DNA of 62,727 nucleotides, filler included, from Hausera hauseri (lineage: Eukaryota): assembly GCA_046269625.1 (NCBI GenBank). It is 10 parts of 10 records of this genome, joined end to end, with 100 filler letters (N's around TTAATTAATTAA, not from the genome) between each part and the next. Parts side by side here need not be neighbours in the genome. Positions count along the whole stretch, not along the records: positions 58,389 to 62,727 come from JBJURY010628663.1; 9 more parts are not named here. The stretch is one strand, 5' to 3'. Positions within the stretch are counted from its first letter, which is position 1. Every line of letters begins with the position of its first letter. Position numbers and translations under genes: made by a program. The notes under the pieces are model-generated. The model was not told where the DNA came from and did not search any database. It saw nothing but the letters and a program-made list of their open reading frames with translations. Below, piece after piece: positions 6,631-62,727 of the stretch.

Positions 6631-6631
6631 A

Positions 6632-6938: not shown

Positions 6939-7038
6939 NNNNNNNNNNNNNNNNNNNNNNNNNNNNNNNNNNNNNNNNNNNNTTAATTAATTAANNNNNN
7001 NNNNNNNNNNNNNNNNNNNNNNNNNNNNNNNNNNNNNN
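6939..7038. other. Artificial contig linker N44-TTAATTAATTAA-N44 (also 12245, 21800, 25951, 31415, 41426, 47158, 53502, 58289)
   Basis: Identical 100-bp spacer with stops in all six frames occurs nine times. Confidence 0.98.
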
Positions 7039-7314
7039 TTATTAATATGATGATCCATGGATGTTGATAGGACACAAGTTGTGTCCGCGACCGCGGTACC
7101 ACCTCACCCCCCCATGGCAGAAGAGAAACTATATAAGGATGAACAGTGTTTACCGGCTATTCGGTTTTAGTATGAGTTTGACGTTGTGTACCAACACAGA
7201 ACTTTTCTCTGCTGTAGGTACTGAATGTCACCCTGCGTACGTTACTGGATGGATTTATGATAGGATGTTGAGTGATGTTTTCCGATGGAGATGATAGAGA
7301 AAATGAGTGTCAGT

Positions 7315-32384: not shown

Positions 32385-33951
32385 AATGTTATATCTAGAA
32401 TTCGAATTAAGTGTCGATTCTATCTGGATATCACTTGAATTGAACTATACTAATTTCGGATATCGAATTTTCTGCGAATTAATTTTGTCGCTTTAACTTT
32501 TCTTATTGGCAATAAAGTTAGCCATCACATTTGTTATAAGTGCATGCATTTCGGATTATTTTGATTTTGGAAATTAAATGTTGAACTATCAAAATCGTAT
32601 TTACGTTCGTGAGTTTCGTTTATCCGCGAATTGGATGAAGTTTACGGTGCCGAAGCTTTCGGTTATTATGGTCAAGTGTAGGCACCAAAAAACGCTCGTT
32701 ATGGATTTTATATTTAACACACTAACGCAACTAAGGTGAAACATGGAAGTTTTATCACTTGGAAACGACAATGGTGTCAGAATTTACTGATAAATTAACT
32801 TATGGAACCGGTTGCACCTTCATTCCATCATCTTTTGGCAAACCGCGCACACACCCGATACTCGCATGGCTACTTGGATGTGCACATACCCTACTCAACC
32901 GTATTATTCTTTCCGGACCAACTCGACCACCTGACATTCCGATGCAGCGTGGGGTTAGTCAATTGTTCATTTTGCGATGCACGGTACTTTTTATGTTTTC
33001 ATTTTTCTACAAACCATTTGAAGTTTGCTATTAACATTACAACGAACATTGGATTTTTATATGGCTATTTTATTTGCGACAATTTGTTGATAATTATCGG
33101 TGGGAATAACAGGAAACTTTTTGAGACCCATTCAGTGACATCTGCGAAAGACAAGATCGAAGTAAAAATAATGTACATGGCCGCGAAATACGTTGCCGAA
33201 AATGGTGAACATTTAATCATTATTTTACAAAAGGAAATAACATATGATAAAAATGTTCACCCGTATGTCTCAAAAATTGGTGGAAATAAAACGTTACAAA
33301 GCAAACAAAAAGATAGGTGAATATTTGCTTACACACTTCTTCCAGTTCATTTAACAGACATTGTTAAATGCCAGTTTGTCATAGTTTGTAACGACAGTCA
33401 TGATCGACAAATAAATAAATTCTTACCAAAAGGAACTGAACAACGAAAACGAAAACCAATAAATCAAGTTCCACATGAACCACCATTGAAAAAACACGCG
33501 CGACATTATGTGAATGTATTTTAAATATCAGAGTTGGAGTCGCAATCTTTTAAACCAATTATCGAAACTAATCGTGCCATAAATGAACTACATGTTCCCA
33601 TATCAACAGTAACGAGATTCAACTTATGTTATGATCAACATTCCAGATTTGGTTTCCATTCCGCGTGCATCACTGCAAAAGAATGATAGTGTACAATAGG
33701 AACACATCCGAAAGGAAAAATAAAAGTAATGGTGATATAAATATCAAATATATTATAGGCCGACGAAAACGAAACGAAACAATAAAGGAAGTCACAGCTA
33801 TCCCTCCGAAAAGAAGGCCTACCGATAGTAAATTGGATTTAGGTAAAAAAATACGCAAACGAAGAGAAATCCAAACGAAACGGCACGAATTGGTCATAAA
33901 TACGCGTCCGGCAAACCTTGCAATCAAACAATTGAACTATTTGAGAAGCAA

Positions 33952-34710
33952 TTGCTAGTGGTGTTTACGCTACAGGATGACGTTGGGGACACCCCATTAA
34001 ACAACATAATATTAAAAGATAATAATTTTATACAATCAGACAGAATTCTGAAAATAGTGCGCGCACATAAACCGTGGGCCTTGAATTTGGTTAACACAAG
34101 TGAGCATACACCTTTAAATTTAAGCCCAGTTTTTAATATACCAACCGACTTTGTCAAAAAGTCCCTGCACACAGAACGTAATACTAATATTCGCGATGAT
34201 ATAAATAAAAATTCTGTCTCATATGCCACCGAATATGAAAATGCACTCGCTTTGAACGTATTATTGAAATATGTAAAAGAACAAAAACTTCATTCGCTAC
34301 AAAGGGGAAAAATTACTAACCATTCGCTGCTACATATCGCAGTTATCAACATTTCCTGCGAAGGCGTAAAGATGTTACCTAATCCGAAGTTTTCTGATGG
34401 AAGCTATACGGCGAAAGTAAACGAATCAGGTTTAACGGAAGGCGCAACGTTACCGCACTTGGCTATTATTAATACTATCAGTTCGGAAATTATTGAAGCC
34501 GTGTTTAACAGAGAAAAAACGGACATTAATACTCTGTATTTTGACAATATCACTCCTTGTAAAGAAAACAAAATTGCCAACATGCTCACTGAAAAAGGAG
34601 CTGCCGAAACTTTATGCAGCGAAGTTAACAATGATCACAAGTCGCTGATCGTCTGCCATTCCTTGAGTTTATCATGTAGTTTCAGTTATATCAGATGGCC
34701 TCCAACATAG
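33952..34710 (+). pseudogene. Degenerate intronless ankyrin-repeat ORF
   Basis: LQDDVGDTPL, NTSEHTPL, SLLHIAV, GATLPHLAI, DIN..IANMLTEKGA. Confidence 0.7.
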
Positions 34711-39490: not shown

Positions 39491-41789
39491 TTCAGGTTCT
39501 ACGAGGAACATGAATTTCCCACTAATTCACTTTCAGAACATTACAAATATGAACAATGCCAGATGGAACTCAAGAGCTATTCTCGCCCTTCTGGCGTTCA
39601 ATCTTATACGTAAAGCGAGAAAGAATTTGGAGACGATTTGCAGATTCATTTCGCATGAGTGGACAGAACATCAGTTTAGTAATTAGAAGTACAATGAGAA
39701 TGACATTAAGAATTTATATGATATATTGAAGCCTTACAAAAAGGCATTTCAGTCATTCAAAAACCACTGGAAAGAAGAGTCATCCGTCATTGACATACCG
39801 CAAAGTAATCAGATAGATGAACATGCAATCAAGGTGATGCAAGACTTCTATGCTTCCTGCAGAAACAAAGACAAACTGAAACTTAGATTCATTTTAAGTA
39901 ATAAGTGCTAGACTCTTTATAAATGGTGGGCATCCTGTGACCCCTGTATTAGACACTGTAAACAGTTATGCATATTATTGTACTGGACGCTTTGGTACTG
40001 TTTATTTTGTAATACATGTATAATTGTATATCAAATAATGTTTTTTGTTATATCACATCACATATGGCATAAATAAATAAGAACAAGAGTATGACTATTT
40101 TACAACATCTACTGTCTTAATATTGATTTACAATTTCTGTATATATTGAAAATTCAATTTCTTAGTTTGGCGGTGACCTTTTTTCAAAATATGTTAAAAT
40201 GAAAAGTCATATCCTTAATATATATATACATAATTGAAGTTATTACATTATTATGGAAACTAAAATAGAGTCAAAATCGCATCGTGCAAAATCACGAACG
40301 ACCGCCATTCTAAAGAACAGGTGGGATAAAAATTTCAAATAGGATGTAAACAACGATAAAAGAGTGACTGACTGGTTGCATCATGAAATAAACTTTGAGA
40401 AAAAAAAGAATGATAAAAGTTAGTGGAAATGAACCTAAAACAATTAACAAGTTCGAGGAGATTAAAACGGTCTTACAAAATAATAATTGCCTATACCAAT
40501 AGAAGGCTGTCCAAGGGGTTTGAATTGTAAAAATGTGCTCAGCCTTGTTAGAATAGGTTCCGGTGAAGCGGAGTTCTGCTAAACTTCCTGTATAAGGCCA
40601 AATTGTTCTTACAGTGGTTGTATGAAGGTGAACTAATTAAAGAAGTGAGAAGAGGTACCAAACTTATCAAAGCTCTGAGTTACTTAATTAACTTACTGAA
40701 AATACAAATTATCCATTCAAAACAAAAAATTGAAGTTAATTTACTGATCTACCTTGTCTTTGGGCGAAGTAAGAGTCGGAAAGCTCAAACTGGTAATCCA
40801 GCTAAGTCAGACAGTCATATATTCTTGGAAGTGACTTTACGAGTTCAAAGACAATTCAAGTCGATATAGTGGCTCTAGGTAAAAGAGTAAACTGTCTTAA
40901 ATCGACAATTGATTATAAAAGTACGGTCGAAGAGATACAACGTTTTAAAATAATCAAACCTGACAAACCCTTTACTGCGACAACAGCTATTAATGTTGAG
41001 GTTAGTTTAAGGCAAGGCCAAGTTATCTTCGTTGTGAGTGATGATCTCGACCTTTGTGTTGGTCGAACCCTTATAATCATGACATAAGAAGTTGTCCGAT
41101 TATTACAACAAACCGTCAGAACCAACACATTGGTGTATGAAGTCAGTATAGGCTCCACAACTCATATTGTCGAGAGTAAGGGCATAGTCCTAAGGGACCG
41201 AGTAAAGGGCGATAAATTACATTTGCAGATGAAGATAAACTCTAGTCCAATCGAGAGTGACATAAGTACTGGGTTTGGATTGGGGTTCCTACAAACTGTG
41301 AGGAGGGGGTGCTACATTATATAAATAAGTATTACAGTGCTATGAAATTAATGAGAATGGTGACGTAATCCGCATCACATTCTTTGCAATTATTTTATTT
41401 CAAATTATTCTCTGAATAAACATTANNNNNNNNNNNNNNNNNNNNNNNNNNNNNNNNNNNNNNNNNNNNTTAATTAATTAANNNNNNNNNNNNNNNNNNN
41501 NNNNNNNNNNNNNNNNNNNNNNNNNTAGCAACGGTGCCTAGCGGTACCGCTGCTAGGCACTTTATGATCCATCGTGCACAGTGTGCACTATGGATCGGCA
41601 CATGTGCAAAATCGACTTATTGATTACCCCCTGGGGGTGGGACCGAAAGCACATTTTCTCACTACTGTCATGAGTAAATCCACAAATACACTGTTGAATG
41701 AGATTCATAGATTTCGACAAATCGGACTTATCCAAATTGCCCGTTATAAAATTCCCAAACGGTTCGTTGTCCTATATATCTGGCGTTTT

Positions 41790-41907
41790 TTTTATTCTTT
41801 CTAGGCGGAAGATCGGGGGCCGCCTATGGGCCCGACGCGGCGGCAGCGGACGCCAGGCCGTGTCCAGACAAGTGGGCCAGAGAGGACCGGCCTCTGTGGA
41901 CACCACA
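41790..41907 (-). mobile_element. Gypsy LTR 5-prime end nested in the integrase of another copy
   Basis: CACCACA at 41901-41907 joined directly to integrase codons PCISRFESVHIDL. Confidence 0.8.
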
Positions 41908-43295
41908 CCATGTATATCGCGTTTTGAATCCGTGCATATTGACCTAGTAGGACCTCTTCGAACAGATAACGGCAATCAATTCATATTGACCATGATGGAC
42001 CGTGCTTCTCCATGGCCAGAGGCCATTCCATTACATTCTACCAACACAGATACTATCGCTGAGGTCTTCATCAAAACGTGGATCAGCAGATTTGGCTCCC
42101 CTCGTTTTATAATCACGGACCGAGGTCCACAGTTCGAGTCAAATCTCTTTAAATCCTTAGTAAATCGCTTGGGAATTAAACATTTGCACACTTCTCCATA
42201 TCATCCCCAAGCGAACAGTTTACTATAAAGATTTCACCGCACAATGAAGACCTCACTTAAAACCCTTACTGAATCACACAGCAACTGGACAGCTGTCCTA
42301 TCTCTTGTCCTGATTGGCTGGGGAAACACACCCTCCAGCACCACGTGTTGTGCACCAGCTAAAGCACTGTTTGGAACACCAATTCGAGAACTTTATGACG
42401 TAACTGATCTGGACGATACACCAGCAGAAGAGTTGATTCGGAATGCGCAAGATCACTTTGTTACACTAAACAAAGACTCATTTTGCAAGATAGTAAATTA
42501 TAACAAATCAAATATACTAAATGATTTGTATACCGCTAAGTTTGTCTGGCTTCGAAATCCTTCACCTTGTGGTTTCCAACCACAATACGTGGAACAATTC
42601 AAACTTTTATCTTTATCCTCCAATACAGCTACCATTCTTAAAAGTGGTAAAGAACAAACTGTGCACGTCACAAAGTTAAAACCAGCCTTCTTCGTTGATG
42701 ATTCTCCCGAAGACACGCAAACCAACACCAACTCTACTGGCACTTTTCTTGACTCCTTTGCCACCACTTCACCCCCATCCAATTTAACTAACCACACGCG
42801 ACCTTCACTTGAAGATAAATCTTCTTTTGATTCTTCTCTTCAACCTTTTCCAAATGCTCAGCCTCCTTCACATCTTCAACTTTCTTCAAACATGCATTCT
42901 TCTAATTCTGCTTCACTTTATATCTTTCCTTAATCCTCCTCAACTTCTGAATCTTCCATATATCCTCAATCTTTCACATCTCCATCTTTTCTTTCATCTT
43001 CACCTTTTACTAAATACTCGTTGCAACCTTCACTTTCCTCAACTAAAACAATACCCACGACAAAATCCCACATTTTTCCCCAACTTACATCTCGGCAAGC
43101 AAACTCAAAATACGCAAGCACAACACACAAAGTTACTTTCAGTAAGTACAATAGAGAACAAACTTTCGACGAAGTACAACGTCTGGTTCACACTAAAACC
43201 AAATATCGCACAAACACATTTCCCTTTTTGCAGATTTTGCTCGTTATTGCCTTTTTTTGTTTTATAGTTTTTAGTTTGCCACGGGAGGCGGATGA
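41908..43295 (+). mobile_element. CsRn1-like gypsy integrase, Ser/Thr/Pro-rich tail and PPT
   Basis: VHIDLVGPL, TDRGPQFES, YHPQAN; purine tract GGGAGGCGGATGA before TGTGGTG. Confidence 0.9.
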
Positions 43296-45789
43296 TGTGG
43301 TGTCTACGTGCTGTGCTGCCGCGCGGCCCATTTTGACCGGACACGGCCGGGTGCGTTGCTTCGCATCGGTGGTGCCGCTGGTCGGGTTTTTGATTTCTCC
43401 GTCGAAGGTTTTTGACATGATCGCAATTACCCCATTGCTTTATTCCAATCAAGCAGTTCGGTTTTGAAATGTCGACAGGGTCGAACATGATTTCCTAATA
43501 TTTGTTGACACGCTTTATTTTTATCAATATTTACTGGACTGAACCGTTTAACAGGCCTATAATTTAACATAAATTTCAAAATAAATGGAGCTGCAAAAAT
43601 GGGGGTTATCATACAATTGTCAGGTTTGCCCGGCATTCGTGTGACATTGTTTTGTTTTAGCGGAGTAAAAACATTACACAATTGCAATTTTCTTGATGAT
43701 TTTACAGCTATCTTTAAAAAAGAAACAGTATATTTTTCCTATCTTTTGGTTATTTCAATTTTGACGATGTATCTTTAAATATACGGTCGGGTCAATTATA
43801 ATGCAAAAATCCCCCTTTATGTCAATCAATCACATGTTTTTGATGCAACAAACCGTATTCAAGGAAAGTAGGTTTATGCACCACAAAATGCTAGGTCGGG
43901 ATTTCCTTTCATTTACTACTCAATTACTTAAGGAAGAATGGATTGACGAGATACATACGGACTCAACAAATGGTGTCAGATCAGCTTTTGTTCACATTAT
44001 TATCCAGAACGGCTCTCATTTATCTACAACGTCAGACTCCGCCGTTTCAATAATGCAAGATTCGGTGCATCCTGCCACCTTCGAATACATCAACGTTTCG
44101 GTGAGCTGCACATACCGTGGCCACAACGCAGATTACAGGTCGGTGAATTTGACTTATTGTATGGTAACGCTCTGCAGTTCCATTTTTTGTTATGCTATCA
44201 TCAAAAAATCCTTCATAATAATTCTGTATCATAATTCATGTGGTTGCGTTTCTGAAATTGCATTTGTATTTAAATATTTTGATTGGTCTTCTGTCACTAT
44301 ACACGTAAAAAATTTTTTGTTACAACATAATGAGGGAGTCATTGAATTTAAATCGTTGGTGCAATTTCTTTTACCTTTTCTTTTAATATTTAATGGTCAA
44401 CTGAAGGACAAAGAAATGTCTAGTAAAGAGGGAGTAAAATTATTTCTAATAAAAATGTATCCGATCGAAGACTGTCGACCGTTTCAATTTTCTGTCGGAC
44501 GTGGCGAAATACTTTGTGGAAATAGGCAACAAAAAAGTCAAACACACTAGCCAGTTTAAATTGAGTAAAAAACATAGATCTTAACAGTGCACGAGCATTG
44601 CTGGAATCATCATTCTTGTTACTATGGTTATATATCTTTAGGATCAATAGCGGAAAACATGCAGACACCCAGAGTAAGCTATACAATACCGTTATTAGTA
44701 CTTTTCTCAAAGGTCCAAAAACTTCCGTTACACGAGATATTTTCACTAATATTCTCGTCAGATTAAGGCACTTTATTTCTCAAGAAAAGTTAGATTTTGC
44801 CTCGGACGTAATAATCGATTTAATTGGCATTAATTATGGTCCTAAAAGCATTTATTCCAAGCGAATGAAGACAGGATTCTGTGCGTTTTCACTAATCATC
44901 TTAAGCCTACTGCAAAAGTCAAAGTGAAACACTCATGCAACAAAAGTCCAATTCTGACGCAACAGATTTATCAATAAATATCATACAGAAATTTCCGAAT
45001 TGGCGATTTAGGACCGTTCAGAGCCTTCTTGGTTTTGGTTGTAAAGAAATACCACACATCATAAAAGACAGAAATTTACAGAATTGCATAAAATCCTTGG
45101 GCAAAAATTCCACACACTTAATCAGATCAGCATTGGATATCGACTAGAAGTTCAACGCAACCGTGCAAAACTTACAAAATCGAGCCAATGAATTTCAATA
45201 CGGAACCGACGAAGCTATAAAAATGCTTAATGAATGCAACATGAAAACTCACTTACGCAATGATGCTATTGAACGATTGAAATTTGTTCACAATAAATGT
45301 CAAATATTATATTCGACAAATATGTCATCAATTCGAATCTGCAATTACAGCAGTCGAACTTAATCCACAATCGAATATCTTTGCAAACAACGTCAACTCT
45401 AAACCGGTTTTCATATCAACGGCCAAACTCTTTGACGGATATTTCTGCTGCTCGGCATTGCTTTGCCGTCCATGCGGGGTCGCGCGCTCGGTCGTTTGTC
45501 CCGGGGCTGTGGGTCTCGTGGCACGCAGCGCGGGGTTATCACGTCACGCCCCTGGCTCCAGCCAGCCCACTTTTCCATTTTCATTTTTAGATACAACACA
45601 CATCCATACGCATACCGAAAATCACAATACTTTAGGAAAAGACCTACATACTTCAATCTTACACGCCACCGACATGTCTGATTTAGTTTTATTTTTCAAT
45701 GGCTTCATCATCCGTCCACGTGATCGTCTGTACAGCTTTCCTTTGCATCCCTCTTCATCTATTTCTATCAAGCTTTAGCCTAAAATTCA
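43296..45789 (+). mobile_element. 2494-bp LTR (TG...CA) with internal host-gene cargo, shared between two tandem gypsy units
   Basis: Preceded by PPT, followed by PBS TGGTGGCTCTGAC; both ends match other copies; interior is unique. Confidence 0.75.
44240..45050 (+). pseudogene. FRY: Furry (FRY/FRYL) N-terminal domain fragment
   Basis: GVKLFLIKMYPIED, ARALLES..LLWLYIFRI..TQSKL, NILVRLRHFISQEKLDFA, RMKTGFCAFSLI..SLLQK match Furry GMKFFRIKMYPVED, ARVALES..LLWVYMIRI..TQSRL, NIFVKIIQFIAQERLDFA, RMNIGLRAFLVIADSLQQK. Confidence 0.85.
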
Positions 45790-47157
45790 TGGTGGCTCTG
45801 ACCCCAACTCTGACGAGATTAAGAAATCGCCAAACATAACCTTAGTGTCGCCAACTCTTTCCTCTTTTTCACACTTTCAGTGAATTGACTTCTTCCTCGA
45901 TAGTCAGAATTCCATTAGAAAATGGCTAGACGTCCACGCAAAGTGGCTAGCCTCACATAAAATTACCGATTCCTTTCAAAAAGCCAACAATTTGTTGATT
46001 CATCTGCCGCCCAACATAAAATCCTTCATTACTAATCTATTTGACATTTTCAATCACTCCGACGCTGTGGCTAAAGCAACTGAGCCTTCTTTGGACTGTA
46101 TAATTAAAAAATATTTCAATGAGAACGCTCTTGGGCAGCAAAAACCCACTGAATTCCTGTGCACTTCACTATCACAATTGAATTCTTTGGGAGTAAACAA
46201 AAAAAAAATAACTCCGATCTTCTCCGACGTTACTTCCTTTCAGCTCTGCTAATTTAAATACGCGCACTGCTCACTGTAGTTGAGGATTATACATCGCTCG
46301 ACAAACTGGCGCAACGTGCGGACAAAAGTTACGAAATTTTTCATAACAATAATACATATAAAACAATTTTAGCTCTACAAGCAACGCAATCACCAACAAT
46401 AGTTGCACGTCTACAATCAGCAAATTCATCAAACAACGAGAACACTATAGTTCATCAAATTCAAAATTTGGAAGCCAAAAATGCGGTCCTACATCAAGCC
46501 ATATCGGTCATCTCTAGCAAAATTGACGCTCTGTCTCTACCGCGTCACGCTGGGTTTAGCGCGGATCGAAGCAGACAATTGTCTGCAAACTCTAGGCACG
46601 GCCAGTCAACTTCGAGACAAATGGTGTGCTATTATTACACCAAATTTAATTAAAATTCCAAAAAAATGTTGTATAATCTGCAGGTTCTGTGCGCAGCATT
46701 TCCAATCACACTATGCGACCTGCATCTATCACATCAAGTTTAAAGACAATGCATAACGCTGCTTACATGAACGTTGCATTGAAATCTTTCCCGCACCACA
46801 CCAAATTTCTGATTAACTCGGGTTCAGCCGTCTCATTACTTCCTTCATCCTTCAACTCCTTAAAATTACTTCCCACGTCTGCCAGACTTTTCACTGCCAC
46901 TGGGCGAGCTTTACGAATTTCTGGTACTGCAGAACTTTCTTTTACTTTAGCACATTTCTCTGAAGTCTTCCGATGGAAATTCATAGTCGCTGACATCAAA
47001 ACTCCTATCTTAGGTTCTGATTTTCTATCACATCACAATTTACTTGCCGACTGCAGACAACATCGTGTCATCAAAAATAAAATCGATAATACAAAATCAC
47101 AAAACGGTACACAACTTGTCGCGAATCTTGCTGCGATGCCGAAATCGATATTAAAGA
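45790..47157 (+). mobile_element. CsRn1-like gypsy PBS, gag and protease
   Basis: PBS resembling tRNA-Trp complement; double CHCC finger; FLINSGSAVSLL; ILGSDFL. Confidence 0.9.
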
Positions 47158-47257
47158 NNNNNNNNNNNNNNNNNNNNNNNNNNNNNNNNNNNNNNNNNNN
47201 NTTAATTAATTAANNNNNNNNNNNNNNNNNNNNNNNNNNNNNNNNNNNNNNNNNNNN

Positions 47258-50200
47258 GACGGCAAGATTCCGCGACGGAAGACGAAATGCAGCAGCCACG
47301 AACGACATCGGGGCAAAACGCAGTACCAGGTTGTACTCGGCCAAATTGAGCCACAGGGGAACAATTTATGTGTTCACCACATCACCGCTGCCCGTGGCCA
47401 AGTGAAAACTGTAAAGGTAAAAACAATAAAAGACAAAATCCGCAAAAGTGAAAAGTGTTTCTGTCCTACTCGGTCTTTGTGTGAATCAGACGTTGTACTT
47501 TGTTGAAATTTTGTTCTGTACTGTACTTTCTGACGGTAACTCTGCGTGTTTTGCTTGCGTATTTTGAGTCTGCTTGCAAAGGTGTAAGTTAAGGAAAAAA
47601 TATCTAAATTTACCGTTGGAGTTGTTTTAGTTGTTAAAGGTGGAAGTTGCAAAGGAGAGTCAGCCGAGGGTACAGAGGATATAAACGTGGAGCAGGTGCG
47701 AAGAATTGAGGATTGGAGGGAGATTTGGCATTTGTAGAGAATTGAGGAAAAAATATCTGAATTTACCGTTGGAGTTGTTTTAGTTGTGAAAGGTGGAAGT
47801 TGCAAAGGAGAGTCAGCCGAGGGTACAGAAGATATAAAAGGTTGAGCAGGTGCGAAGAATTGAGGATTAGAGGGAGATTTGGCATTTATAGAGAATTGAG
47901 GAGGGATATGAAGTGGAGTAGAGTTAGAAAATGACGTGTTTGAAGAAGGTTGAATGTGTGAAGGAGACCGAGAATTTGGAAAAGGTTGAAGAGAAAAATC
48001 TAAGGTAGATATGTCTTTACGTGAAGGTCGTGTGTGGTTAGATAAATTGGATGGGAATAAAGTGATAGCAAAGCAATCAAGAAAAGTACCAATAGAGTTG
48101 GTGTTGGTTTGTGTCTTAGGGAGAATCATCAACGAAAAGGCTGGTTTTAGGTTTGTGATGTGCACAGTTTGTTCTTTATTACTTTTAAGAATGGTAGCTA
48201 TATGAAAGGATAATGATAAAAGTTTGAATGGTCCCAAGCACTGTGGTTGGAAACCACAAGGTGAAGGATTGCCAAGCTAGACAAACGTAGCGGTATAAAA
48301 ATTCATTGGCATATTTGATTTGTTATAATTTATTATTTTGCAAAATGAGTCTTTGTTTAATGGAAGGAAGTGATTTTGCGAATCTCAAATTACCTCATCT
48401 GTTGGTGTATCATCCAGATCAGTCAATTCAAATGTGACCGAATATGTGTCCCAAACGATGCTTCAGCTGGTGCACAACCCGTCGTGGTGGAGGGTGTGTT
48501 TCGCCAACCAAGAATGACAAATAATAGGAGAGCTGTCCAGTTGCTGTTTGATTCATCAAGGATTTTGAGTGAGGTTTTCATTGTGCGGTGAAATCTTTCT
48601 AGTAAGCCGTTAGCTTGGGGATGATATGGAGAAGTGTGCATGTGCTTGATCCCCAAGCGATTGACTAAGGATTTAAAAAAATTTGACTCAAACTGAGGAC
48701 CTTGGTCCGTGATTATGAAGCGAGGTGAGCCAAATCTGCTGATCCAAGTTTTAATAAAAACCTCAGCGATTGTGTCCGTGTTGGTGGAGCGCAATGGAAG
48801 GGCCTCTGGCCATCGAGAAGTACAATCCATCATGGTCAATATGGATTGAAGGCCGTTATCTGGTCGAAGAGGGCCGACTAGATCAATATGCACGGATTCA
48901 AAACGCAATGTACAAGGGAAATGATAAAGTGGTGGCTTCAGATGTCTGTTAATTTTGAACTTCTGGCATGCCGCACACGCCCTAATCTACGCTGTACGTA
49001 TGATCCCATTGACGGCCATATAACGTTTCGTTGTAAGAGCTAAAAAGTTGCTTTAGCGCCAGGATGATGAAGAGAATCACGCTATGTAATGCAGTTCTTT
49101 GCAAAGATGAACATAGTATAGGTTTGTGATTGCCGGGTCTAGAATTGTCATAGGCAACGCCGTCGATGATTTGGTATGATTTAAAGGATTTAAGAATATT
49201 CTGCGTTGGCACATTTTGCTGAAGCACAACTTGTGAAAAAATCGGCATGACTCCTATGATGTCAAGTGATCTTGATAAAAATAGGCAACTAGATTGTTAG
49301 TGCCTTAAATATGTACCATTTTGAAACTGAATGTCGACAAGTAAGATATGTGACGTTCCTGTTGGGGTGAAGGGGCTTTCATGTCCATAATGCTAATCAG
49401 AGGTTTGTAGTCTGTTTGGATCGTAAAAGACCTGGCAATTATCTAATGCGAGAAGTGTTTTAGAGCTAATACTATAGCTAAGAGTTCTCTGTTGAAAGTT
49501 GAATAACGACTTTCTGGTGGTGTAACTTTCCGAGAATAAAATTCCAGAGGCTCGTTGACGCCATTAGAAATTTGATCCAGTATTGCGCCAACTACTGTGC
49601 TAGAGGCGTCTGTGGTTAATATCAGCTCTGCGTCAGGCTTGGGGTATGCTAAAATTTCAGTGGTTTTTATACCCTCACGTAAATGTTCGAATTGGTTTAC
49701 AAGTTCAAGTGTCCTGTGAATTAACTGTTTCTTTCTTCCAGGTGATAAAAATGCAAAGGTGCAGTTAATTCGGAGCAATGTGGCACGTATTTATAAACAA
49801 AGTAGAATGTAACAAGAAAAGAGCGCATTTCAGTCGTTGTACGTGGTAGTTGAATGTTTTTAAGCTGAGTTATGCGATCTTGTTGAGGCGAGTGGCCAGA
49901 TTTGCTGATAACATGACCAAGAAAGTCGATTATCTGTTGGAAAAAGGATAATTTAGCGAAGTTAACTTCGAGATTAAATTGGCGGAGGCTCTGAAAGGCT
50001 ATGCATAAATGCTCAGAATGTTGTTTGGGAGACGACGAAGCGATGAGGATGTCGTCTATATACGGGAATGCAAAGTTTAGACCGGCGAACACTGTACCTG
50101 TGTACCTTTGAAATGTTTGTGAGGCACTACGAAGTCCAAATGGCATGAAAATATACTCGAAAAGGCCGAAAGGTGTTGTTACAGCCGTTTTCGGTATGTC

Positions 50201-52740
50201 AGCCAATGAGACAGGAATCTGATGGTAGGCTTTATGAAAATCTATGGATGAAAATATGGTGTTACCATTGAGTCTGTATAGGATATCATTGATGAGCGGT
50301 AATGAATACGCGTCCATTACCGTAATGGTGTTTATTTGGCGGTAATCGCCACAGGCCTGAAAGTACCGTCCTTCTTAAGCACTACGTGCAGAGGTGAGGC
50401 CCAAGTTGACTTTGATCTTCTTATAATTCCTGCCTTTTCTAATTCATTAAATTCCAACTCTACCACTTTGCATCTGCGAGGAGAAAATGGCCTAACCTTC
50501 TGTTTAATTTGTCTCTGGTGTTCAGTGACGATGTGATGGTATGTTGTAGAAACAGGTTTAAAGTTGGGGTCTTTCTTTAATGTTCTGGCACAAGAAATTG
50601 TTATGTAATCGCGAGGAGCTGAATCTAGTTGTAAGAATGGAGATGCAGGCTGAGAAGTCATGTTTGTATTTGTAGTTGTTTTTAATGATTGTACGAATAG
50701 AATCGTCACAATTGTAATTTCCAACACTCAGTTCATTTAGTTTGATTACAGATTTCTTTAATATCGATTTTGGCATTGCAGCAAGATTCGCGACAAGTTG
50801 TGTACTGTTTTGTGATTTTGTATTATCTATTGTATTTTTGATGACACGATGCTGTCTGCAGTCGACAAGTAAATTGTGATGTAAAAAAATCAGAACCTGA
50901 GATAGGAGTTTTGAAGTCAGCTACTATGAATTTCTATCGGAAGACTTCAGAAAATTGTGCTAAAGTAAAAGAAAGTTCTGCAGTACCGGAAATGTGTAAA
51001 GCTTGCCCAATTGCAGTGAAAAGTCTGGCAGACTTGAGAAGTAGGAGTTGAAGGATGAAGGAAGTAATGAGACGGCTGCACACGAGTCAATCAGAAATTT
51101 GGTGTGGTGCGGGAAAGATGTCACTGCAGCGTCCAAAAGAAAAACAGCGTTGGTACAAAGATTAAGTGATGAAAAATGGCTTTTTCCAGAGGCTGCCGTA
51201 GTTTTGGAGGCATTATTCATTTTTTGAATAGATGAAGATGTTGAAGTTTTCTGGTTGTAAAACGTACACCCAGGAAGCAGCGTTCTGCATTGTCTTTAAA
51301 CTTGCTGTGATAGATGCAGACCGCATCGTGTGATTGGAAACGCTGCGAATAGAACATGCAGCCTATACAGTATTTTGTGGCATTTCGAATGAATTTGGTG
51401 TGATAATAGCACACCATTTGTCTCGAAGGTGACTGGCCGTGCCTAGAGTTTGTAGACGACTCTCTGTTTCGATCCGTGCTAAACCGATTGCGACGCGGTA
51501 GAAACAAAGTGTCAATTTTGCTAAGATGGCCGATATGGCTTGATGTAGAGCCGCATTTTCGGTTTGCAGATTTTCAATTTGATGAACTATAATGTTCTCG
51601 TTGTTTGATAAGTTTGCTGATTGTAGATGTGCAACTATTGTTGGTGATTGCGTTGCTTGTAGAGTTGAAATCGTTTTATATGTATTATTGTTATGAAAAA
51701 TTTCGTAACTTTTGTCCGCCAGTTACGCCAGTTTGTCGAGCGACGTAGAATCCTCAATTACAGTGAGGAGTGCACGTATTTGGATTGGCAGAGCTGAAAG
51801 GAAGTAACGTCGCAGAAGATCGGCGTTATTTTGTTGGTTAACTCACAAAGAATTTAATTGTAATAGTGAAGTGTGCAGGAAATTACTGGGTGTTTGCTGC
51901 CCAAGAGCGTTGTCATTGAAATATTTTTGAATTATAGAGTCCAGAGAAGGATCAGTTGCTTTATTAATAGCATACAATAGAGATTTGTAGGGGTCGGAGT
52001 GATTGAAAATGCCAGATAGATTAGTAATTTTATGTTGGGCGGCAGATGAATAAGCAAACTGTTGGCTTTTTGAAAGGAATCAGTGATTTTATGTGGGGCT
52101 AGCCACTTCGCGTGGAAGTCTAACCATGTTCTGCTGGAATTCCAACTATGGAGGAAAAAGTCAACGCACTGTAAGTGCGAAAATGAGGAAGGAGTTAGCG
52201 ACACGAAGGTTATGTTTGGCGACTTCTTAACCTCGTCAGAGTTGGGGTCAGAGTCACTATGAAGTTTAGGCTGAAGTATGATACAAATGGATAAATAGGG
52301 ATGCAGAAAAAAACTATACAAACGATCATGTGGACGGATGATGGAATCGTTGAAAAACAAAACAAAGTCAGACATGTTGGTGGCGTGTAAGATTGAAGTA
52401 TGTAGCTCTTTTTCTAAGGTATTGTGGTTTGCGATGTGTGTGTGGATGTGTGTGTTGTATTTAAAAATGAAAATGGAAAAATTGTTCTGGCTGGAACTAG
52501 GGGCGTGACGTGATTGCCACGCGCTGCATGCTGCGCGACCCATGGCCGCAGGGTGAACAACGGCTACTACGGTTCCTCCGTAATGGCGCCGAAAAGGCAC
52601 AAAAGGAAGACTCCCGTCGGAGAAAACGACCGCCGGTACGGCATTTTCGGGAACCGCAATAAAACCACGGTGTTTGAGATTGGTTCTATCGGCAATGATA
52701 ACGTCGATCTCAAATGTAACATATTGATCGACCTTTTCTG
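47258..52740 (-). mobile_element. Near full-length CsRn1-like gypsy copy (frameshifted)
   Basis: LTR end CA at 52260 and PBS TAGTGACTCTGAC; gag, FLIDSCAAVSLL, FPYIDDI, TTDASS, VHIDLVGPL; PPT then TGTGGTG at 47381. Confidence 0.93.
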
Positions 52741-53141
52741 TCTTTTGCTTCATAACCATATTAAATGAATTACTTTTTGTACTGTCGTTCTTCCTGCTGG
52801 TGTTTGTATTGAAAAATTATCAATGAAGGACGGATTGTGTAACTTGATTTGATCAGGATTCTTTCTCTCCTCCGTCTTTGGTGTAACGTTATTTGAACTG
52901 AACACCGACTGTTTAGTGGCATTGGAAAAACTAAAATATGTGGGTTTCGAAGCGTTTTCCTGGGCCATTGATAACTTCGAGGGATTTTGAGAATAAGGAG
53001 TAGCGATTGCTTTTAAAACTAACGGTGGTGATTTGAGATTTCCGGAAAAATTTGACGTGGCAGAACCGGAAACGAAGGGTTTTAAAGAGGACTTTGTATC
53101 GGCAGTATTCGTGGTAGACCCCAATAGTAGAAGGAAAGGAG

Positions 53142-53601: not shown

Positions 53602-56600
53602 ACCACATGATATACAAGTACCAATCAGATGTACTAAATAATACACAAGTCCCAGCAACATGTATCACATAATATACAAGTACCAATGAGATGTATCACA
53701 TCATACACAAGTATCGACAAAACGTATCACATAACACACAAGTAACAACAAAATGTATCACATAATACACAAGTAACAATAAGATGTATGACATAATACA
53801 CAAGTAGCAATAATATGTACTACATAATACAGAAGTATTAAAAAGATGTATCACGTAATACACAAGTATCGACAGGATGTATGACATAATACACAAGTTC
53901 CAACAAGGGGTGTCACGTAATACACAGTTACCAACAAGACGTACTACATAATATATAAGTACCAACAAGATGTATCACATAATACACAATTACAAATAAG
54001 ATGTATCACATAATACACGAGTATCGAAAAGATGTATCACATAATACACAAGTACCATTAAGATTTATCACATAATACACAAGTACGAATAAGATGGACT
54101 ATATAATGCATAAGTATCAACAAGATGTATCACATAATACACAAGTATCGACAAGATGTATTATATATTACACAAGTACCAATAAGATGTATCACATAAC
54201 ACACAAGTACCAACAAGATTTATCACATAATACACAAGGATCGACAAGATGTATCACATAATAGAGAAGTATCTACAAGATGTATCACATAATACACAAG
54301 TACCAATAATATGTATCATATAATACACAAGAACCAGTAAGATGTATTACATAATGCATAACTACCCATAAAATTTACCACATAGTACACAATTACCAAT
54401 CAGATGTACAACATATTACACAAGCACCAACAACATGTATCACATAATACACAAGTACCAATAAGATGTATCACATCATACACAAGTACCAATAAATATC
54501 ACAGAATACACAAGGACCAATAATATTTATTACAGAATACACAAGTACCAATAGCATATACCACATAACACAGAAGTAACAATAAAATGTATCACAGAAT
54601 ACACAAGTACCAATAATATGTACCACATAATACAAAAGTACCATTAAGATGTACCACATAATACACAAATGCCACTAAGATGTATCATATAATACACAAG
54701 TATCGAGAAGATTAATCACATAATACACAATTATAACATAATGCACAAGTACCAATAAGATGTATCACATAGTACACAAGGACCAATAAGATGCATCACA
54801 AAATACACAGGTACCAACAAGGTGTACTACATAATACATAAGTACCAACAAGATGTATCACATAATACACAAGTATCGACAAGGTGTATCACATAATACA
54901 CAAGAATTAGCAAGATGTGTCACATTATACACAAGCACCAATAAGATGTATCACATAATACACAAGTAAAAATAAGATGCATCACATTATACACAAGAAA
55001 CAGTAAGATGTATCACAGAATGCACACCTACCAATAATATGTTCCACACAATACACAAGTACCAATCAGATGTACCACATAATGCACAAGTACCAACAAG
55101 ATGTATCACATAATACACAAGTACCAACAAGACATATCACATAATACACAAGTACCAATAATATGTATCACACAGTACACAAGTGCCAATAAGATGTACC
55201 ACATAATACACAAGTACGAATAAGACGTATAACATAATACACAAGTATCGACAAGATGTATCTCATAATACACAAGTACCAACAAGATGTATCACGTAAG
55301 ACACAAGTGCCAACAAAATGTTCTACATAATATATAAGTACCAACAAGATGTATCACATAATACAAAAGTACCAATAAGATTTATGACATAATACGCAAG
55401 TAGCAAAAAGATTTATAACATAATACACATGTACCAATAATATATATCACATATTACACAATTACCAACAAGATTTATCACATAATTCACAAGGATCGAC
55501 AAGATGTATCACGTAATACACAAGTATCTACATGATGTATCACATATTACACAAGTACCAATAATATGTATCATATAATACACAAGAACCAGTAAGGTGT
55601 ATTACATAATACACAACTATCAATAAGATTTACCACATAGTACACAAGTACCAATCAGATGTACAACATAATACACAAACAACAAGATGTATCACATAAT
55701 ACACAAGTACCAATAAAATGTATCACATCACACAGAAGTTCCAATAAGATGTATTACAGAATACACAAGTACCAATAACATGTATCACAGAATACACAAG
55801 TACCAAAAAATGTATCACATAATATACAAGTACCAAAAGATGTATCACATAATACACAAGCACCAACAAGATGTATCACATAATACACAAGGAGCAACAA
55901 GATGTATCACAAAATACACAAGTACCAACAAGATGTATCACATAGTACACAAGTAGCAAAAAGATGTATCACATAATACAAAATTAACAATAAGATGTAT
56001 CATATAATACGCATGTACCAATAACATGTATCATATAAAACACAAGTACCAATAACGTGTATCATATGATACACAAGAGCCAGTAAGATGTGTCACGGAA
56101 TTCACAACGACCCACAAGATTTACCACATAATACAAAAGTACCAATCAGAGATGCCACAAAATACACAAGTACCAACTGATATATCACATTATACACAAG
56201 TATCAACAACACGTATCACATAATACACAACAACCAACAAGACGGATCATATAATACACAAGTACCAATAAGATGCATCACATAATACACAACAACCAGT
56301 AAGATGCATCACATAATACACAACTATCAATAAGATATACCACATAATACACAAGTGCCAATCAGATGTACCACATAATACACAAGTACCTAAAAGTTGT
56401 ATCATATAATACACAAATACAAACAAAATGTACCGCCTTATGCACAAGTAGCAGTAACATGTATCACATAATACAAAAGTACCAAAATGATGAACCAAAT
56501 ATCACACATGTAACAATAATATGTATCACATAAAACAGATGTACAAATAAGATGAATCACATAATACACAAGTACCAACAAGACGTACGACATAATGCAC

Positions 56601-58288
56601 AAGTATCAATAAGAAGTATCACATAATACACAAGTACCAATAAGAGGTATCACATAATACACAAGAACCAATAAGGTGTATCACATAATACACAAGTCCC
56701 AACAAGATGTATCACATAAAACAAAAGTACCAACAACATGTATCACATAAAACTCAAGCACCAACAAGATGTATCACATCATACACAAGTACCAATAAGA
56801 TGTATCGCATAATTCACAAGTACCAATAACCTGTATCATATAATACACAAGTACCAGCAATCTGTATTACAGAATACACAACTACCAATAAGATTTACCA
56901 CATAGTACACAAATACCAATCAGATGTACCACATAATACACAAGTACCAACAACATATATCATATAATACTCAAGTACCAATAAGAGTTATCACATAATA
57001 CACAAGAACCAATAAGGTGTATCATATAGTACACAAGTACCAATAAAAAGTATCACATAATACACAAGAACCAGCAAGATGTATCATGGAATACACAACT
57101 ACCAATAAGATTTACCACATAATACTCAAGTACCGACAACATGTAACACATCATACACAAGCACCAATAAGATGTATCATATAATACTCAAGATCCTGTA
57201 AGATGTTTTACATAGTACACAACTACCCATAATATTTACCACATAATACACAAGTACCAATCAGATGTACCACATAATACACAAGTTCTAACAGATGTAT
57301 CAAATAATACAAAAGTACCAACAACACGTATCACATAATACGCAACAACCAACAAGACGTGTCATATATTACACAAGTACCAATGAAATGCATCACATAA
57401 TACACAAGAACCAGTAAGATGCATCACATAAAACACAAGTACAAATAATAATTATCACATAATACACAAATACCAACAAGATATATCACATAAAACACAC
57501 GAACCAACAAGATGTATCACATAATACACAAATACCAATAATACGTACCACATAATACACAAATACCAATAATATGTACCACGTAATACACAAGTACCAC
57601 TAAGATGTATCACATTATACACAAATACCAGCAAGATGTATCACGTAATACACAAGATCCAATAAGATATATTACATATTACACAAATATCAATAAGATT
57701 TACCACATAATACACAAGTACCAATCAGATGTACCACATAATACACAAGATCCAACAAGATATATCACATAATACACAAATACCAACAAGATGTATCACG
57801 TAATACACAAGATCCAATAAGATATATTACATATTACACAAGTGCCAATCAGATGTACCACATAATGCACAAGTACCTACTAATACAAATAAAACGTACC
57901 GCCTTATGCACAAGTAGCAGTAACATGTATCACATAATTCAAAAGTAGCAATATAATGTACCAAATAACACACATATACCAATAAGATGTATCGCATAAA
58001 ACGCAAGTACAAATTATATGTATGGCATAATGCACAAGTATCAATAAGACGTATAACATAATACACAAATACAAACCAGATGTATCACATAATACACAAG
58101 TGCCAATAATATGGACCCCATAATACACAAGTACCACAAAGATGTATCACATAATACACAAGCACCAATAAGAGGTATCACATAATACACAAGAACCAAT
58201 AAGGTGTATCACGTAATACACAAGTACGAATAAGATGTATCACTTATACACAAGTACCAACAAGATGTATCACATAATACACAAGTAT
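53602..58288. repeat. 31-bp satellite array (about 150 units)
   Basis: Consensus ATGTATCACATAATACACAAGTACCAA(T/C)AAG fills the whole contig. Confidence 0.97.
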
Positions 58289-58388
58289 NNNNNNNNNNNN
58301 NNNNNNNNNNNNNNNNNNNNNNNNNNNNNNNNTTAATTAATTAANNNNNNNNNNNNNNNNNNNNNNNNNNNNNNNNNNNNNNNNNNNN

Positions 58389-59220
58389 ATGTTAAATCGC
58401 ATCATTTCTTCGGGGTATTCCGAATATACCACCGTTGCAACTTCCGTCATCTTTACTTCTTTAACTCCTTTCTTATATGTTGTCTATTCTCTTTCGGCCG
58501 TTCTTCCAACCGTCTTATTAAATTTTTTTTCCTTTAATAACATAAGATGGCATCGATTCGAACTAACATCCCAAGTCATTTTAGATTCTCCACTATCACA
58601 CTCCCCGTTTTTATATTCGCATTTACTCATAATTGTCATGAGTTTAGTTTGTGACTCAAATAACCCCTCATATTTATTCAATTGAACTTGATAATCTTCG
58701 ATGGCTACTGTTCTTGATGCGGTAGTGCCTCCCACGACATAGTCTACCCCTTTACAGGTGCCTTCCATTGTTTTATCTATCCTTCCAGCTCGAAAAATTC
58801 GAGTATATTTTATTTTTTTTGTACTGCATATATTTGCGCGTTTTGTATTGTTATCACTCCGATTTTAAATGCATCTTGACATTCAGCTCGTGATATAATT
58901 ATCGGTTCGAAAGGTGTTGTTGGTTCGATAATAGCGGAGTTTCCAGAATAATATTCACAATTGAATTGTAAGTATGATTTCTTTACGTAGCACTCTCTGA
59001 TTTTAGCCTTGATGAATTCCGATTCTTGGTACATCCAATAACTATGACCATTAATTGTTGTTAATTGTTCGGGATCGGCTTTAGGGCACTTTTCTAAATC
59101 CACCAAGAAATACTTCTGCCTTTCTTTAGGTTTCGAACAATCATAAGCCACCACGCCCATAGCCTTAGGCATGCAGATGGATGCTATCAATAATAGTTGT
59201 AATATATCCATAAATATCAT
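58389..59220 (-). pseudogene. Chuvirus-like envelope glycoprotein N-terminal half
   Basis: Hydrophobic leader ILQLLLIASICMPKAMG then VVAYDCS..CP..YQ..EC..NC..ISRAEC..GTCKG..CEYKNGEC..W....C, the cysteine spacing of chuviral G proteins and their endogenous derivatives; stop/frameshift near 58800. Confidence 0.75.
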
Positions 59221-61807
59221 TCCACCTAAGCCTTGTTTTATAACACTAGGTTGTGTTGCAGTTATTCTTCCATATTGTCCTCCTTCGGGTCTCCTACCGT
59301 TCATTAAACTTGGTATCCATCCGCACCTATATTGCACCCAGTTTTCCCAAGTATCGGGTAGGATTTTAACTGTTACTCTTATGTTCCTTTCGAGTTCCTC
59401 AAGGTTTTGTGTCTGATAATTGATAACAATTACTTTATATAGCAAATAAGCAACAGCCTTTACAACTTTTTCTCTGGTAATACCTGTTGTAAACATCTTC
59501 TCCAATATGTCTTGTTCATGTAGTTTGTTAATTCTCTCTTCATTAATGTCCTCGTAAAATTGTCTGCTAATTCTCAGCATGCTGTTACGCAACGTCTGGA
59601 ACAAGTCGTCGGGAGTAGTCACTTGCATATCGAAAGATGCGAATGATATATGTAATTTTGATAGCAGCGTTCTCAACAATGGGTCTATATCTATAGTTTC
59701 TAATGTCGTATCTCTTCCTGCCAATAGTAAGCGTCGTACAATCTCTTCATTTCTATCTCTTATTCCGAATATCACTTATTTTAGTTCCTTTTGGCCGTCC
59801 TTTTCTTTTAGCCTCAGTTTGTACCGTGACATCCTGTATGTTACCGGTTGGTTGCTCTTCTACTTCCTGTGGTTGTAGTTCCTTTATTGTGTTTTCTATT
59901 GTTTCCTCCGCTCTTGCGTCAGGGTGTATCTTGGTTATCGTGATTGGGTTATAGTTTTCGCTTCTACATCCAATTCTTAGTAGTTTATCATAACCATATA
60001 ACGTTCTTCCATAAAAACTTAACCCATACAGAACGGTTCTAACTCTTCAATTCTCTCTCGAAACGTTAATATGTCATCTGTCTCATTCATTCTGATAACC
60101 CTCATATCGTGATTTCCTTCTTTTAATGTTATTCTTAATGCTTCGTTTCTTCCTCTTTTATTTTCAGCTACTTTAGCCAATATTGTCCGAGCTATCTCTT
60201 ANNNNNNNNNNTTCAATTCTTTCTCGCAACGTTAATATATCATCTGCTTCATTCATTCTAATAACTCTCATATCCTGGTTTCCTTCTTTTAACGTTATTC
60301 TTACCGTTTCGTTTCTTCCTTTTCATCTTCAGCTACATTAACCAATATTGTCAGTGCTATTTCTCTTATTGGACTAGTATCGTGGGCGAGTAATAGTAAC
60401 TGGAATAAAATTTCGTTTGTCTTAACTGTAGATACCTTACTATCTATTAATTTTAGTATGCTTGTCGCTTGATTTACGTCTATTATATTTTTAGGATCTA
60501 TAGCAATTACGCTGGGATAAGGTCTTCAGCATCTAAATCTACCTCTATATCATGTATTACTTGTTCAATAACGATTTCATCAAAAAATTTTGTGGGTTGC
60601 ACTTTTTCACTTTCCTATGACGTTGACTCGCCAGACTTACTTTTCTTTCGTCCTCTTTTGTCCTACATCGCTTTTCTCCACAGAAGTTTCTGGATTCCCC
60701 CCCCTTCTATCTTTTTATTACCCTTCTTTCTTGTAGAGGTTTTCCTCCTTTTGACTTTTTCGTTACGTAAATACTATTTTCTCTTAATCGTTTCTGTTGA
60801 ATTTTATAATCCTTTAATTCTATGTCTAGTTGCTTTCTCATATGTTGAGATAATATCTCGTTAACATAGTTTACACTCTCTTTTATCTTTTTTTATGCTC
60901 ACTATCCTATGTTTCATATTCTTTATCGGATGATTCATCCAATGTGGCTGACACATAATCCTTCTGTTTATTACCATTGGACTTAGAAGAATCTCTATCG
61001 TGACCTACGTGTTTTTGCTATGTGACCGTATTTATTACAATTAAAACACTTCAACCTCCCTTCTGAATCTATATTGGGTAATGCCCTTCCATCCTTCGTA
61101 GAGCTTTTTTTTCTTGTAATTGAACCTCACTTTCTTTTCTACGTCTGATTCAGCTTCTAATCTGACGTTTGCGAGGGACTTCGATTCCTGACATACCGCT
61201 GATATTTTTGTGTACTATTAATTTTCCTTTTATCTTGTTTACCTCCGTAACTTTTAGACTTGTTCCATTTATATAGGTCCACATCTCATTCGGCTTTACG
61301 AGCTTTCCTTATAGCTTTTTGGAACGTAGGTGGATCGGCTTGTAAAATTATTTCCATTAACTTTCCTTCTAATCCCTATTGGAATTGGGCCAACAATGCA
61401 TTGTTTCTTATCGTTACGTCAGGGCTGCCCGTGCTGCCAATTTTTCCAGTGCGCATAAGTAATCTTGGACTGACTTGTCTTTTCGTTGCCTTCTTCGTAT
61501 AAATTCTTCTATCCTCCCCTTTCCAGAGGGATCAACTAGAAACTTGTGTGGCAACTTTTCTTTAATGGATTTCCAGTCCTTCTTATCATCTTCTGGCATC
61601 TGGAAATAAATCTTTAGGGCTGTTCCTTTTAAATGAAGAGGCAATCTCCATCCGTTGTTGGTTGTTCCATCCAAAACTTCTTTAGTACACTTCGTACTCC
61701 ATCATAAAATCTTGTACATCTTACTTTCCACTAAACTTTTTCATAGGCAGGGTGAAATCAGCTTTTGACTGTATCATCCGTTCTACGTTATAGTTATTTC
61801 GGGCCAT
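58389..61807 (-). mobile_element. Retroelement B: Gag-CCHC, UBL, AT-hook, chuvirus-like Env (decayed)
   Basis: ATG at 61807; KFSG.DVQDF, LPLHLKGTALKIY, RRQRKDKSVQDY (retrotransposon gag); CFNCNKYGH at about 61045; LRITLK..DDILTFRERIE..LSFYGRTL; KRKGRPKG at about 59800. Confidence 0.8.
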
Positions 61808-62727
61808 TCTGTTTTCCTCTTCACTTGAATTATTTATAAATTCTAATCTAAACGGTAAGTTATCTTCTGAATCTGCTTGATATTGTGTTTCCTTCCTGGT
61901 CGCAATTTTTGATAATTTAATTACTTCTTCTTATCTAAAGGTTTCTGCGAGTTTTCCCGGGTCACAGTACCAGTTGTTGAAACCTCACTAATTCGAGTTG
62001 GGAGAGGCCTATCAATTGAACGTGCGTTGAATTAATGGAGAGAACAAATTTACTTCAATAATTATTTTTAACGTGTTGAGTAGGGCGAGACAGACGTAAG
62101 GATCTTACCTAGCCCTAACTTATAGGTAGTATGTGGGGGACAGTTGCCGTTAAGGCTGATTTTATCTCTTTTTCTACGGTTTACTTGAAGTCAAATTATT
62201 GATAATTATACTGGCCGCCGTCAAGTAGGCTTGACCTGGACGGCTATTTGTTCCAATTTACTTAAGGATTTACTTATTTAGTTACTTTAGTTACAGAAAG
62301 AGAACGATTCTCGGATAAAAATATATATTATTACCGATAACAAATTTGTAAAAAAATATACGCTTAAAAGATAATCTATCAATAAGACGTGCTACGATCA
62401 CCAAAATCACAATAAAAAATAATAGCAATACTCACATAAATTATTTGAAACACTACAAGACACCCAAGTCCGAAAACAAAAATTGCTAAATTATGACAGA
62501 AAACCTTCAATATAACGAATAGTTTTAGTAAGTCATTCTTTAATCCTTGTACTTATTCTATTAATGAAAATTTATGAAATGCACATATAATCATTCAAAG
62601 TTATCGAGGAAACGAATTTTACTATAAATAAAAGACGTACAAAATTGAATACTGATCAGCAAACAAGCGAATATTCGTTTATCTAGATCAAATATCCTGA
62701 TCTTTTTACCATGAATCTGAACTGTTT

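Follow-up and report, generated by a model that had tools for sequence, protein, structure and literature searches.

A Decayed and Very Probably Burro-Like Gag-Env-Pol Errantivirus Copy with Ubiquitin-Like and Bcl-2-Fold Domains in Hausera hauseri

The minus strand of the last contig in a 62,727-nucleotide stretch of Hausera hauseri DNA (the window) very probably carries a decayed errantivirus, truncated by the contig end, that belongs to a high-copy Ty3/gypsy-type family with the Gag-Env-Pol layout of Burro/GYPSM1-like elements. The window is composed of ten short contigs chained via N44-TTAATTAATTAA-N44 spacers, and the element takes up the greater part of the final contig, which spans 58389-62727. 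Its minus-strand order is Gag, zinc knuckle, ubiquitin-like domain (UBL), AT-hook, helical (Bcl-2) domain, signal peptide, and chuvirus/gB-type Env. An earlier note on this DNA had listed its parts in the same order, which is borne out by the Pfam matches to Gag, knuckle, and Env, by the positions of the motifs, and by the collinearity of the UBL with that of the relative P0001. The "helical region" of that note is indeed a helical domain, the Bcl-2 fold of which had been missed.

Searched by phmmer against 1.84 billion representatives, the 321-aa window ORF returned 36 matches, the best being P0001 (1130 aa, 42% identity, E 5e-73). P0001 combines Gag, knuckle, UBL, the motif KRNRGRPKG, helical (Bcl-2) domain, signal, and Env in a single ORF. 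It is collinear with the present copy from Gag through to the contig end and is its sister in both Env trees, of which the short one is mostly unresolved. A word-index search from the window ORF to longer proteins returned none, while residues 430-830 of P0001 returned P0001 itself only. No relatives were found in viral contigs or prokaryote genomes.

Terminal Repeat, Gag, and Env

The putative 5' LTR (61975-62295, minus strand) is ~320 bp long with TG...CA ends, starting with TGTAAC and ending with CAACA two bases ahead of the primer-binding site. The latter (61961-61972, minus strand) is tentatively assigned as tRNA-His-like, 10 of its 12 bases being equal to the His_GUG 12-mer in Supplementary file 1 of PMC13524379. 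The summed depth of run X1 drops from 1840 (62159-62303) to 53 (62304-62448), coinciding with the outer edge of the putative LTR. This LTR is present as one copy only, and its 3' partner would lie outside the visible contig.

The Gag capsid region (61290-61807, minus strand) contains stops and frameshifts and aligns by tblastn to residues 19-178 of P0001. Pfam places Retrotrans_gag (PF03732, E 3.2e-6) within 61417-61701. The nucleocapsid part is represented by a single, degenerate zinc knuckle (61007-61048, minus strand; PF00098, E 5.6e-4), which in this copy is without the fourth ligand. The distance from the Gag start to the AYDC motif of Env, located at 59148, is 2660 nt, corresponding to ~890 codons between the Gag start and Env.

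Env is preceded by a hydrophobic segment (59155-59220, minus strand) that is found right before AYDC both here and in relatives and is assigned as the internal signal peptide or signal-anchor, cleavage at which is probable. Only the N-terminal third of the chuvirus/gB-type class III Env is visible (58389-59154, minus strand; one frameshift, one stop), as the contig ends at 58389, about one third into Env, with the 3' side of the element lying beyond the visible sequence. Two fragments match Monjiviricetes_fusion (PF24664, E 2.8e-10 and 2.9e-5), covering model positions 4-226 of 653. The Env model of P0001 finds its best matches among the chu-like virus glycoproteins in BFVD (E 8e-21) and matches HSV gB and GP64 in the PDB (E ~6e-6). 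The prediction that Env is a chuvirus-like class III fusogen is thus supported. The AYDC region accordingly has, through the P0001 model, a structural match to chuviral G, which is consistent with the earlier reading as a chuviral-type glycoprotein and supports that of an enveloped endogenous virus-like element.

AT-Hook-Like Motif and Bcl-2-Fold Domain

The basic motif KRKGRPKG (59786-59809, minus strand), with KRNRGRPKG as its P0001 counterpart, is AT-hook-like. Of 17 relatives, 6 have its GRP[KR] core in the interval from UBL to Env, compared with 0.08 expected from shuffles. As far as the sequence suggests, the motif may serve in nucleic-acid binding or as a nuclear signal.

The domain that follows (59293-59706, minus strand) is assigned as a Bcl-2 fold, with a divergent BH1 at 59464-59502 and a BH2-like segment at 59317-59340. 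The helical region of this copy gives a weak Pfam Bcl-2 match (E 0.012), and the fold is complete, most of the top rows aligning over 127-136 residues. The structure model of the window ORF is poor (pLDDT 46). Ankyrin look-alikes of this region from the ESM Atlas (0.82) were below threshold and are contradicted by the Bcl-2 fold matches. The NWGR motif of BH1 is not kept, reading GITREKV here and similarly in relatives, and canonical BH3 binding is therefore uncertain. The W-x3-GGW of BH2, on the other hand, recurs among the relatives.

Cellular Bcl-2 proteins bear a tail anchor behind the fold. In the relatives the Bcl-2 domain, wherever it is present, is the last recognised domain ahead of the signal, and in the present copy the signal segment lies ~30 residues behind BH2, such that this segment can act as a tail anchor of the Bcl-2 type.

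An anti-apoptotic role for the domain is an even call. A repurposed scaffold, involved in the binding of innate-immune adaptors or acting as a matrix-like membrane tether instead of inhibiting apoptosis, is somewhat less probable. Several poxviral Bcl-2-like proteins bind innate-immune adaptors. The replacement of the BH1 Trp-Gly-Arg in all aligned members is in line with such a scaffold, as is the fact that the domain is undetected in many intact relatives (P0004, P0018, P0040, and P0042-P0047) and hence appears dispensable. However, the whole fold is kept over the residues aligned, BH2 recurs, and a hydrophobic anchor follows. The scaffold alternative bears solely on function and leaves room for the identification of the element as a Burro-like errantivirus.

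State of the Copy, Place of pol, and the UBL

The alignable segments of the copy change frame ~7 times and contain 8 or more in-frame stops. The copy cannot make the polyprotein itself, and since it is so heavily broken the single-ORF reading rests on the relatives. A total of 9936 contigs of run X1 map on the element stretch, with a summed depth of ~2,200-58,800 across the coding part versus 9.5 in the last flank bin, which indicates a repeat family, the depth figure not being equal to a copy number. Several of the frame breaks lie close to places where other copies in X1 differ in length, a pattern that copy-specific decay would be expected to leave.

A 10-N gap (60202-60211) lies between the Gag and Env sides and is straddled by a tandem duplication of 166 nt (60046-60364, minus strand; units 86% identical), which comprises the end of the helical domain preceding the UBL and the N-terminal half of the UBL. 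The duplication is either copy-specific or an assembly join, because some X1 contigs cross the gap with a single unit, skipping the other. An assembly chimera, in which the gap would link two sides derived from separate copies or elements, is in our view improbable. The gap does sit exactly between the two similar units, and the family is highly repetitive in X1, but both sides match P0001 in order, X1 contigs span the junction with one unit, and a joining of two copies would stay within one family and leave the architecture unchanged.

The three minus frames of 58389-61807 are free of D[TS]G protease and YxDD motifs, and neither PR nor RT lies ahead of Env in any of the 24 matches scanned with Pfam, in agreement with the earlier statement that no aspartic protease or RT separates Gag from Env. 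That pol is not visible in this copy is due to the contig stopping inside Env. P0001 likewise stops inside Env, on a 4786-nt contig, with its 3' part out of view. The Env TM is reached by 9 of the 36 matches. Seven of these run in frame into an aspartic protease, two of the seven (P0005 and P0018) extending to RT and IN, and the other two (P0003 and P0008) end just past the TM. P0041 (4057 aa) and P0051 (3181 aa) have Gag, knuckles, UBL, Bcl-2, Env, PR, RT, and IN in one ORF, P0053 has the series from Gag to protease including UBL and Bcl-2 plus ankyrin, and L001 is an open frame of 3426 aa with UBL-Bcl-2-Env-PR-RT-RH-IN. The single ORFs of P0001, P0041, P0051, and P0053 thus uphold the proposal of one Gag-to-Env polyprotein, this copy itself being broken. 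They speak against a deletion of pol between Gag and Env, an option also raised earlier, as P0041 and P0051 carry pol in frame downstream of env.

Not every relative is a single ORF, because L002 has Gag-knuckle-UBL-AT-hook-Bcl-2, then a TGA, and then signal-Env. This single in-frame TGA (L002 3058-3060) lies between Bcl-2 and the Env signal in frames that are otherwise open, and is either a nonsense change or a site of read-through. L001 and L002, which were outside the profile building, match both the UBL (1e-7 and 9e-14, respectively) and the Bcl-2 (5e-16 and 5e-21) profiles.

A search with L001 yielded 61 long proteins. Among the 28 Env-bearing proteins longer than 700 aa, 20 reach RT, and Env comes first in 19 of them, a count that is biased as the query is itself an Env-Pol ORF. 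The RT-RH tree retained 58 of the 63 rows given (four near-duplicates were dropped and one had no match of sufficient length), and all 16 rows with Env before Pol fall inside one clade of 18 rows with an SH-aLRT of 100. UBL and Bcl-2 are scattered within this clade, which suggests, at the level of sequence, repeated loss or divergence beyond detection. The pol (PR-RT-RH-IN) of P0005, P0018, P0037, L001, and P0040-P0052 is of the Ty3/gypsy type, the gypsy-type domains of the relatives including Retrotrans_gag, RT_RNaseH, Integrase_H2C2, and YIDD. PF05380 and PF03564 are absent from the relatives' pol in Pfam. The pol of the present family, extrapolated from distant kin with Env about 30-40% identical, most likely lies beyond the contig end.

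A non-autonomous Gag-Env family without its own pol, whose RNA would be packaged and whose RT and IN would be borrowed from a Burro-like partner, is in our view quite unlikely. The visible part without pol, the end of P0001 inside Env, and the compact N-terminal half would fit such a family, but the seven of nine TM-reaching relatives that continue into a protease do not, and the contig end fully accounts for the missing pol here.

Some further features of the relatives are mentioned here in their own right. P0037, P0004, P0005, and L001 contain several aspartic-protease domains per polyprotein, with seven gag-asp_proteas stretches in P0037, and this group also has C2H2 fingers, ankyrins, and extra hydrophobic segments past the integrase. 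An RNase_T-type exonuclease (PF00929, E 1.7e-5) is encoded at L001 10617-11795 as a separate ORF after the polyprotein, and a segment similar to it by eye is found at ~640-760 of P0008, inside the polyprotein and upstream of the UBL.

The UBL, a beta-grasp domain (59936-60150, minus strand), is split by a frameshift into halves in different frames (60034-60150 and 59936-60049) and has no C-terminal di-glycine. The UBL of this copy alone has no Pfam match and is collinear with that of P0001. The family profile A2 matches the ubiquilin-2 UBL in the PDB with E 8e-9, and also RAD23A, ISG15, and ubiquitin, confirming the ubiquitin-like fold that the earlier note had recognized. The P0001 model showed this region as helices and was set aside, since alignment A3 is poor over that part. 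The UBL call rests on sequence profiles because of this misfolded region.

The UBL is preceded by a probable remnant (60320-60525, minus strand), similar by eye, of a helical domain that is conserved ahead of the UBL in relatives. The remnant was not matched by a profile built without it and was assigned to no family, and for the domain itself the ESM Atlas gave no usable match. A TFIIS-N/LEDGF-IBD identity, suggested by resemblance, was considered for this domain and found no match in PDB sequences or Pfam to confirm it.

The top single-domain matches of the UBL profile are integral UBLs of ubiquilins, and the UBL is, by its sequence, most likely an integral interaction module and not a cleavage tag. 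The earlier suggestion of a cut behind the UBL by host deubiquitinases or SUMO proteases, separating Gag from the remainder, is the least likely of the alternatives, for although the fold is that of a true ubiquitin-type UBL and P0053 (ARILGG) and P0008 (KKKKGG nearby) have a di-glycine near the UBL end, the other 15 of 17 relatives, including P0001, and the present copy have none, the best matches are integral UBLs, and the relatives have a protease of their own, frequently more than one copy of it. P0053 is the one relative in which cleavage by a host DUB looks plausible, its UBL ending being close to the C-terminus of ubiquitin itself in both motif and position.

On the basis of the relatives, the following scheme can be proposed for an intact Burro-like errantivirus of this family. 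The order Gag(CA-NC)-helical domain-UBL-AT-hook-Bcl-2-signal-Env-TM-PR-RT-RH-IN, seen as sequence in the relatives, would be translated from one ORF. From membrane-protein topology, the part from Gag to Bcl-2 would remain in the cytosol, while the internal signal would direct Env to the ER lumen, where signal peptidase would release it. The Env TM would bring the chain back to the cytosol, and the aspartic protease of the element would then cut Gag and Pol. The signal segment that remains after this processing would lie ~30 residues past the Bcl-2 fold and probably has a second use, anchoring both the Bcl-2 domain and the Gag precursor in the membrane. The UBL would work as an integral interaction domain, and the Bcl-2 domain would most likely keep the producing cell alive or damp its stress and immune signalling.

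Relation to Known Elements and Significance

The layout has been published, and the element represents a compact version of it, not a new system. The earlier note had considered it new. However, in the section of PMC6431247 on Burro (citing Grohme 2018 and Jurka 2007), a single ORF with retrotrans_gag, CCHC knuckles, Ubi2/SUMO-like, BCL2, Env, PR, RT, RH, and IN was described in 2019 for Burro1-4/GYPSM1, giant gypsy-like LTR elements of planarians. According to the same section, the Burro Env is mononegavirus-like and lies in frame between gag and pol, and the elements, from dugesiid planarian hosts, exceed 30 kb with LTRs and have an ORF of ~4,900 aa in which Smc/MATH-type regions precede the UBL. 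BURRO1 transcripts are stated in PMC8532177 to rise upon smedwi-2 knock-down.

Compared by description, the present element and Burro share the N-terminal Gag with retrotrans_gag and CCHC knuckle, the UBL followed by Bcl-2 before Env, and the Gag-Env order, the in-frame pol after Env being seen in the relatives and not on this contig. The ankyrin repeats listed for Burro are also present in P0037, P0041, and P0053. The differences are the single knuckle, compared with 2-3 in Burro, the distance between the Gag start and Env, which leaves no room for Smc/MATH/MDN1 regions, and the AT-hook-like motif, which is unmentioned in the PMC6431247 section on Burro. In addition, the element does not have the giant size, its short putative LTR contrasting with elements of >30 kb. 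As giant size is lacking and Burro was compared by description and not by sequence, we file the element as a Burro-like Gag-Env-Pol errantivirus and not as Burro proper.

GAG-ENV-POL "ancient errantiviruses" with an HSV/gB-type ENV are reported for Nematoda, Bryozoa, and Platyhelminthes in the main text of PMC13524379. They are similar in having a Ty3/gypsy pol (here in the relatives) and a gB/chuvirus-type Env after a signal peptide, between gag and pol. Ubiquitin, AT-hook, Bcl, and Burro are absent from that main text, while the figure supplements or external annotation may show them. Anakin, a mosquito Pao element with a chuviral glycoprotein as described in PMC7642597, is likewise an LTR retroelement that has acquired a glycoprotein of this broad family. 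In the present case, however, Gag is PF03732, Env is fused in frame upstream of pol, and the relatives' pol is of the Ty3/gypsy type, so that BEL/Pao, with which the earlier note had compared the element, is not its group. In contrast to the viral Bcl-2 homologues of large DNA viruses (BHRF1, A179L, CNP058, KsBcl-2, and GIV66), the Bcl-2 domain here is embedded in a retroelement polyprotein, with the Env signal segment as its likely anchor.

Other parts of the window hold related and unrelated sequences. A second, larger element of like kind, which shares no DNA similarity with the first and is cut by the contig end, is found at 21900-25950 (plus strand). It comprises, in order, the Gag end, a zinc knuckle (PF00098, E 1.8e-4), ~800 residues of helical and coiled sequence, the same pre-UBL helical domain (E 4.5e-7), a UBL (PF00240, E 1.6e-5), and KPKRPFGRPRK, and its spacing is closer to that of the giant Burro than is that of the copy at 58389-61807. 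An ankyrin-type fragment at 33883-34437 (plus strand), similar to residues 1837-2023 of the 4844-aa Env-Pol polyprotein P0037 (E 6e-18), is possibly a third Burro-like piece. The region 53604-58287 is a satellite array of ~150 copies of a 31-bp unit that fills its own contig. It lies past the assembly spacer (58289-58388) and, as a separate contig, is uninformative on the 3' half of the element.

Several decayed ordinary Gag-Pol gypsy copies, 75-91% alike and without env, occupy 3200-11000 and 41500-52800 on both strands. Broken host-gene-like fragments are found at 1292-2700 and 43765-44927 (both plus strand), with HEAT repeats and a furry/MOR2-PAG1 N-terminal piece (PF14222, E 3.6e-12); the HEAT-repeat fragment resembles GCN1. 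The other contigs contain gypsy, mariner-type, and Psq-type transposon remains, which together with the furry-like fragment fit a repeat-rich animal genome.

In the literature searched, outside which most subscription papers lie, we found neither a compact form akin to Burro nor any retroelement Bcl-2 that had been put to the test. What is new is the compact form, with its putative LTR of ~320 bp and ~890 codons, the AT-hook-like motif, and the broad clade with its intermittent presence of UBL and Bcl-2. The patchy distribution of UBL, AT-hook, and Bcl-2 over one RT clade represents accessory domains kept or lost within a Gag-Env-Pol polyprotein. The compact relatives make testable the 2019 suggestion that Burro-type elements interfere with host apoptosis and ubiquitin pathways, as the 140-residue Bcl-2 domain and the 80-residue UBL, of which natural intact versions exist in the relatives, can be assayed alone. 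If it is working, a retroelement-borne Bcl-2 would extend viral control of apoptosis from large DNA viruses to reverse-transcribing elements.
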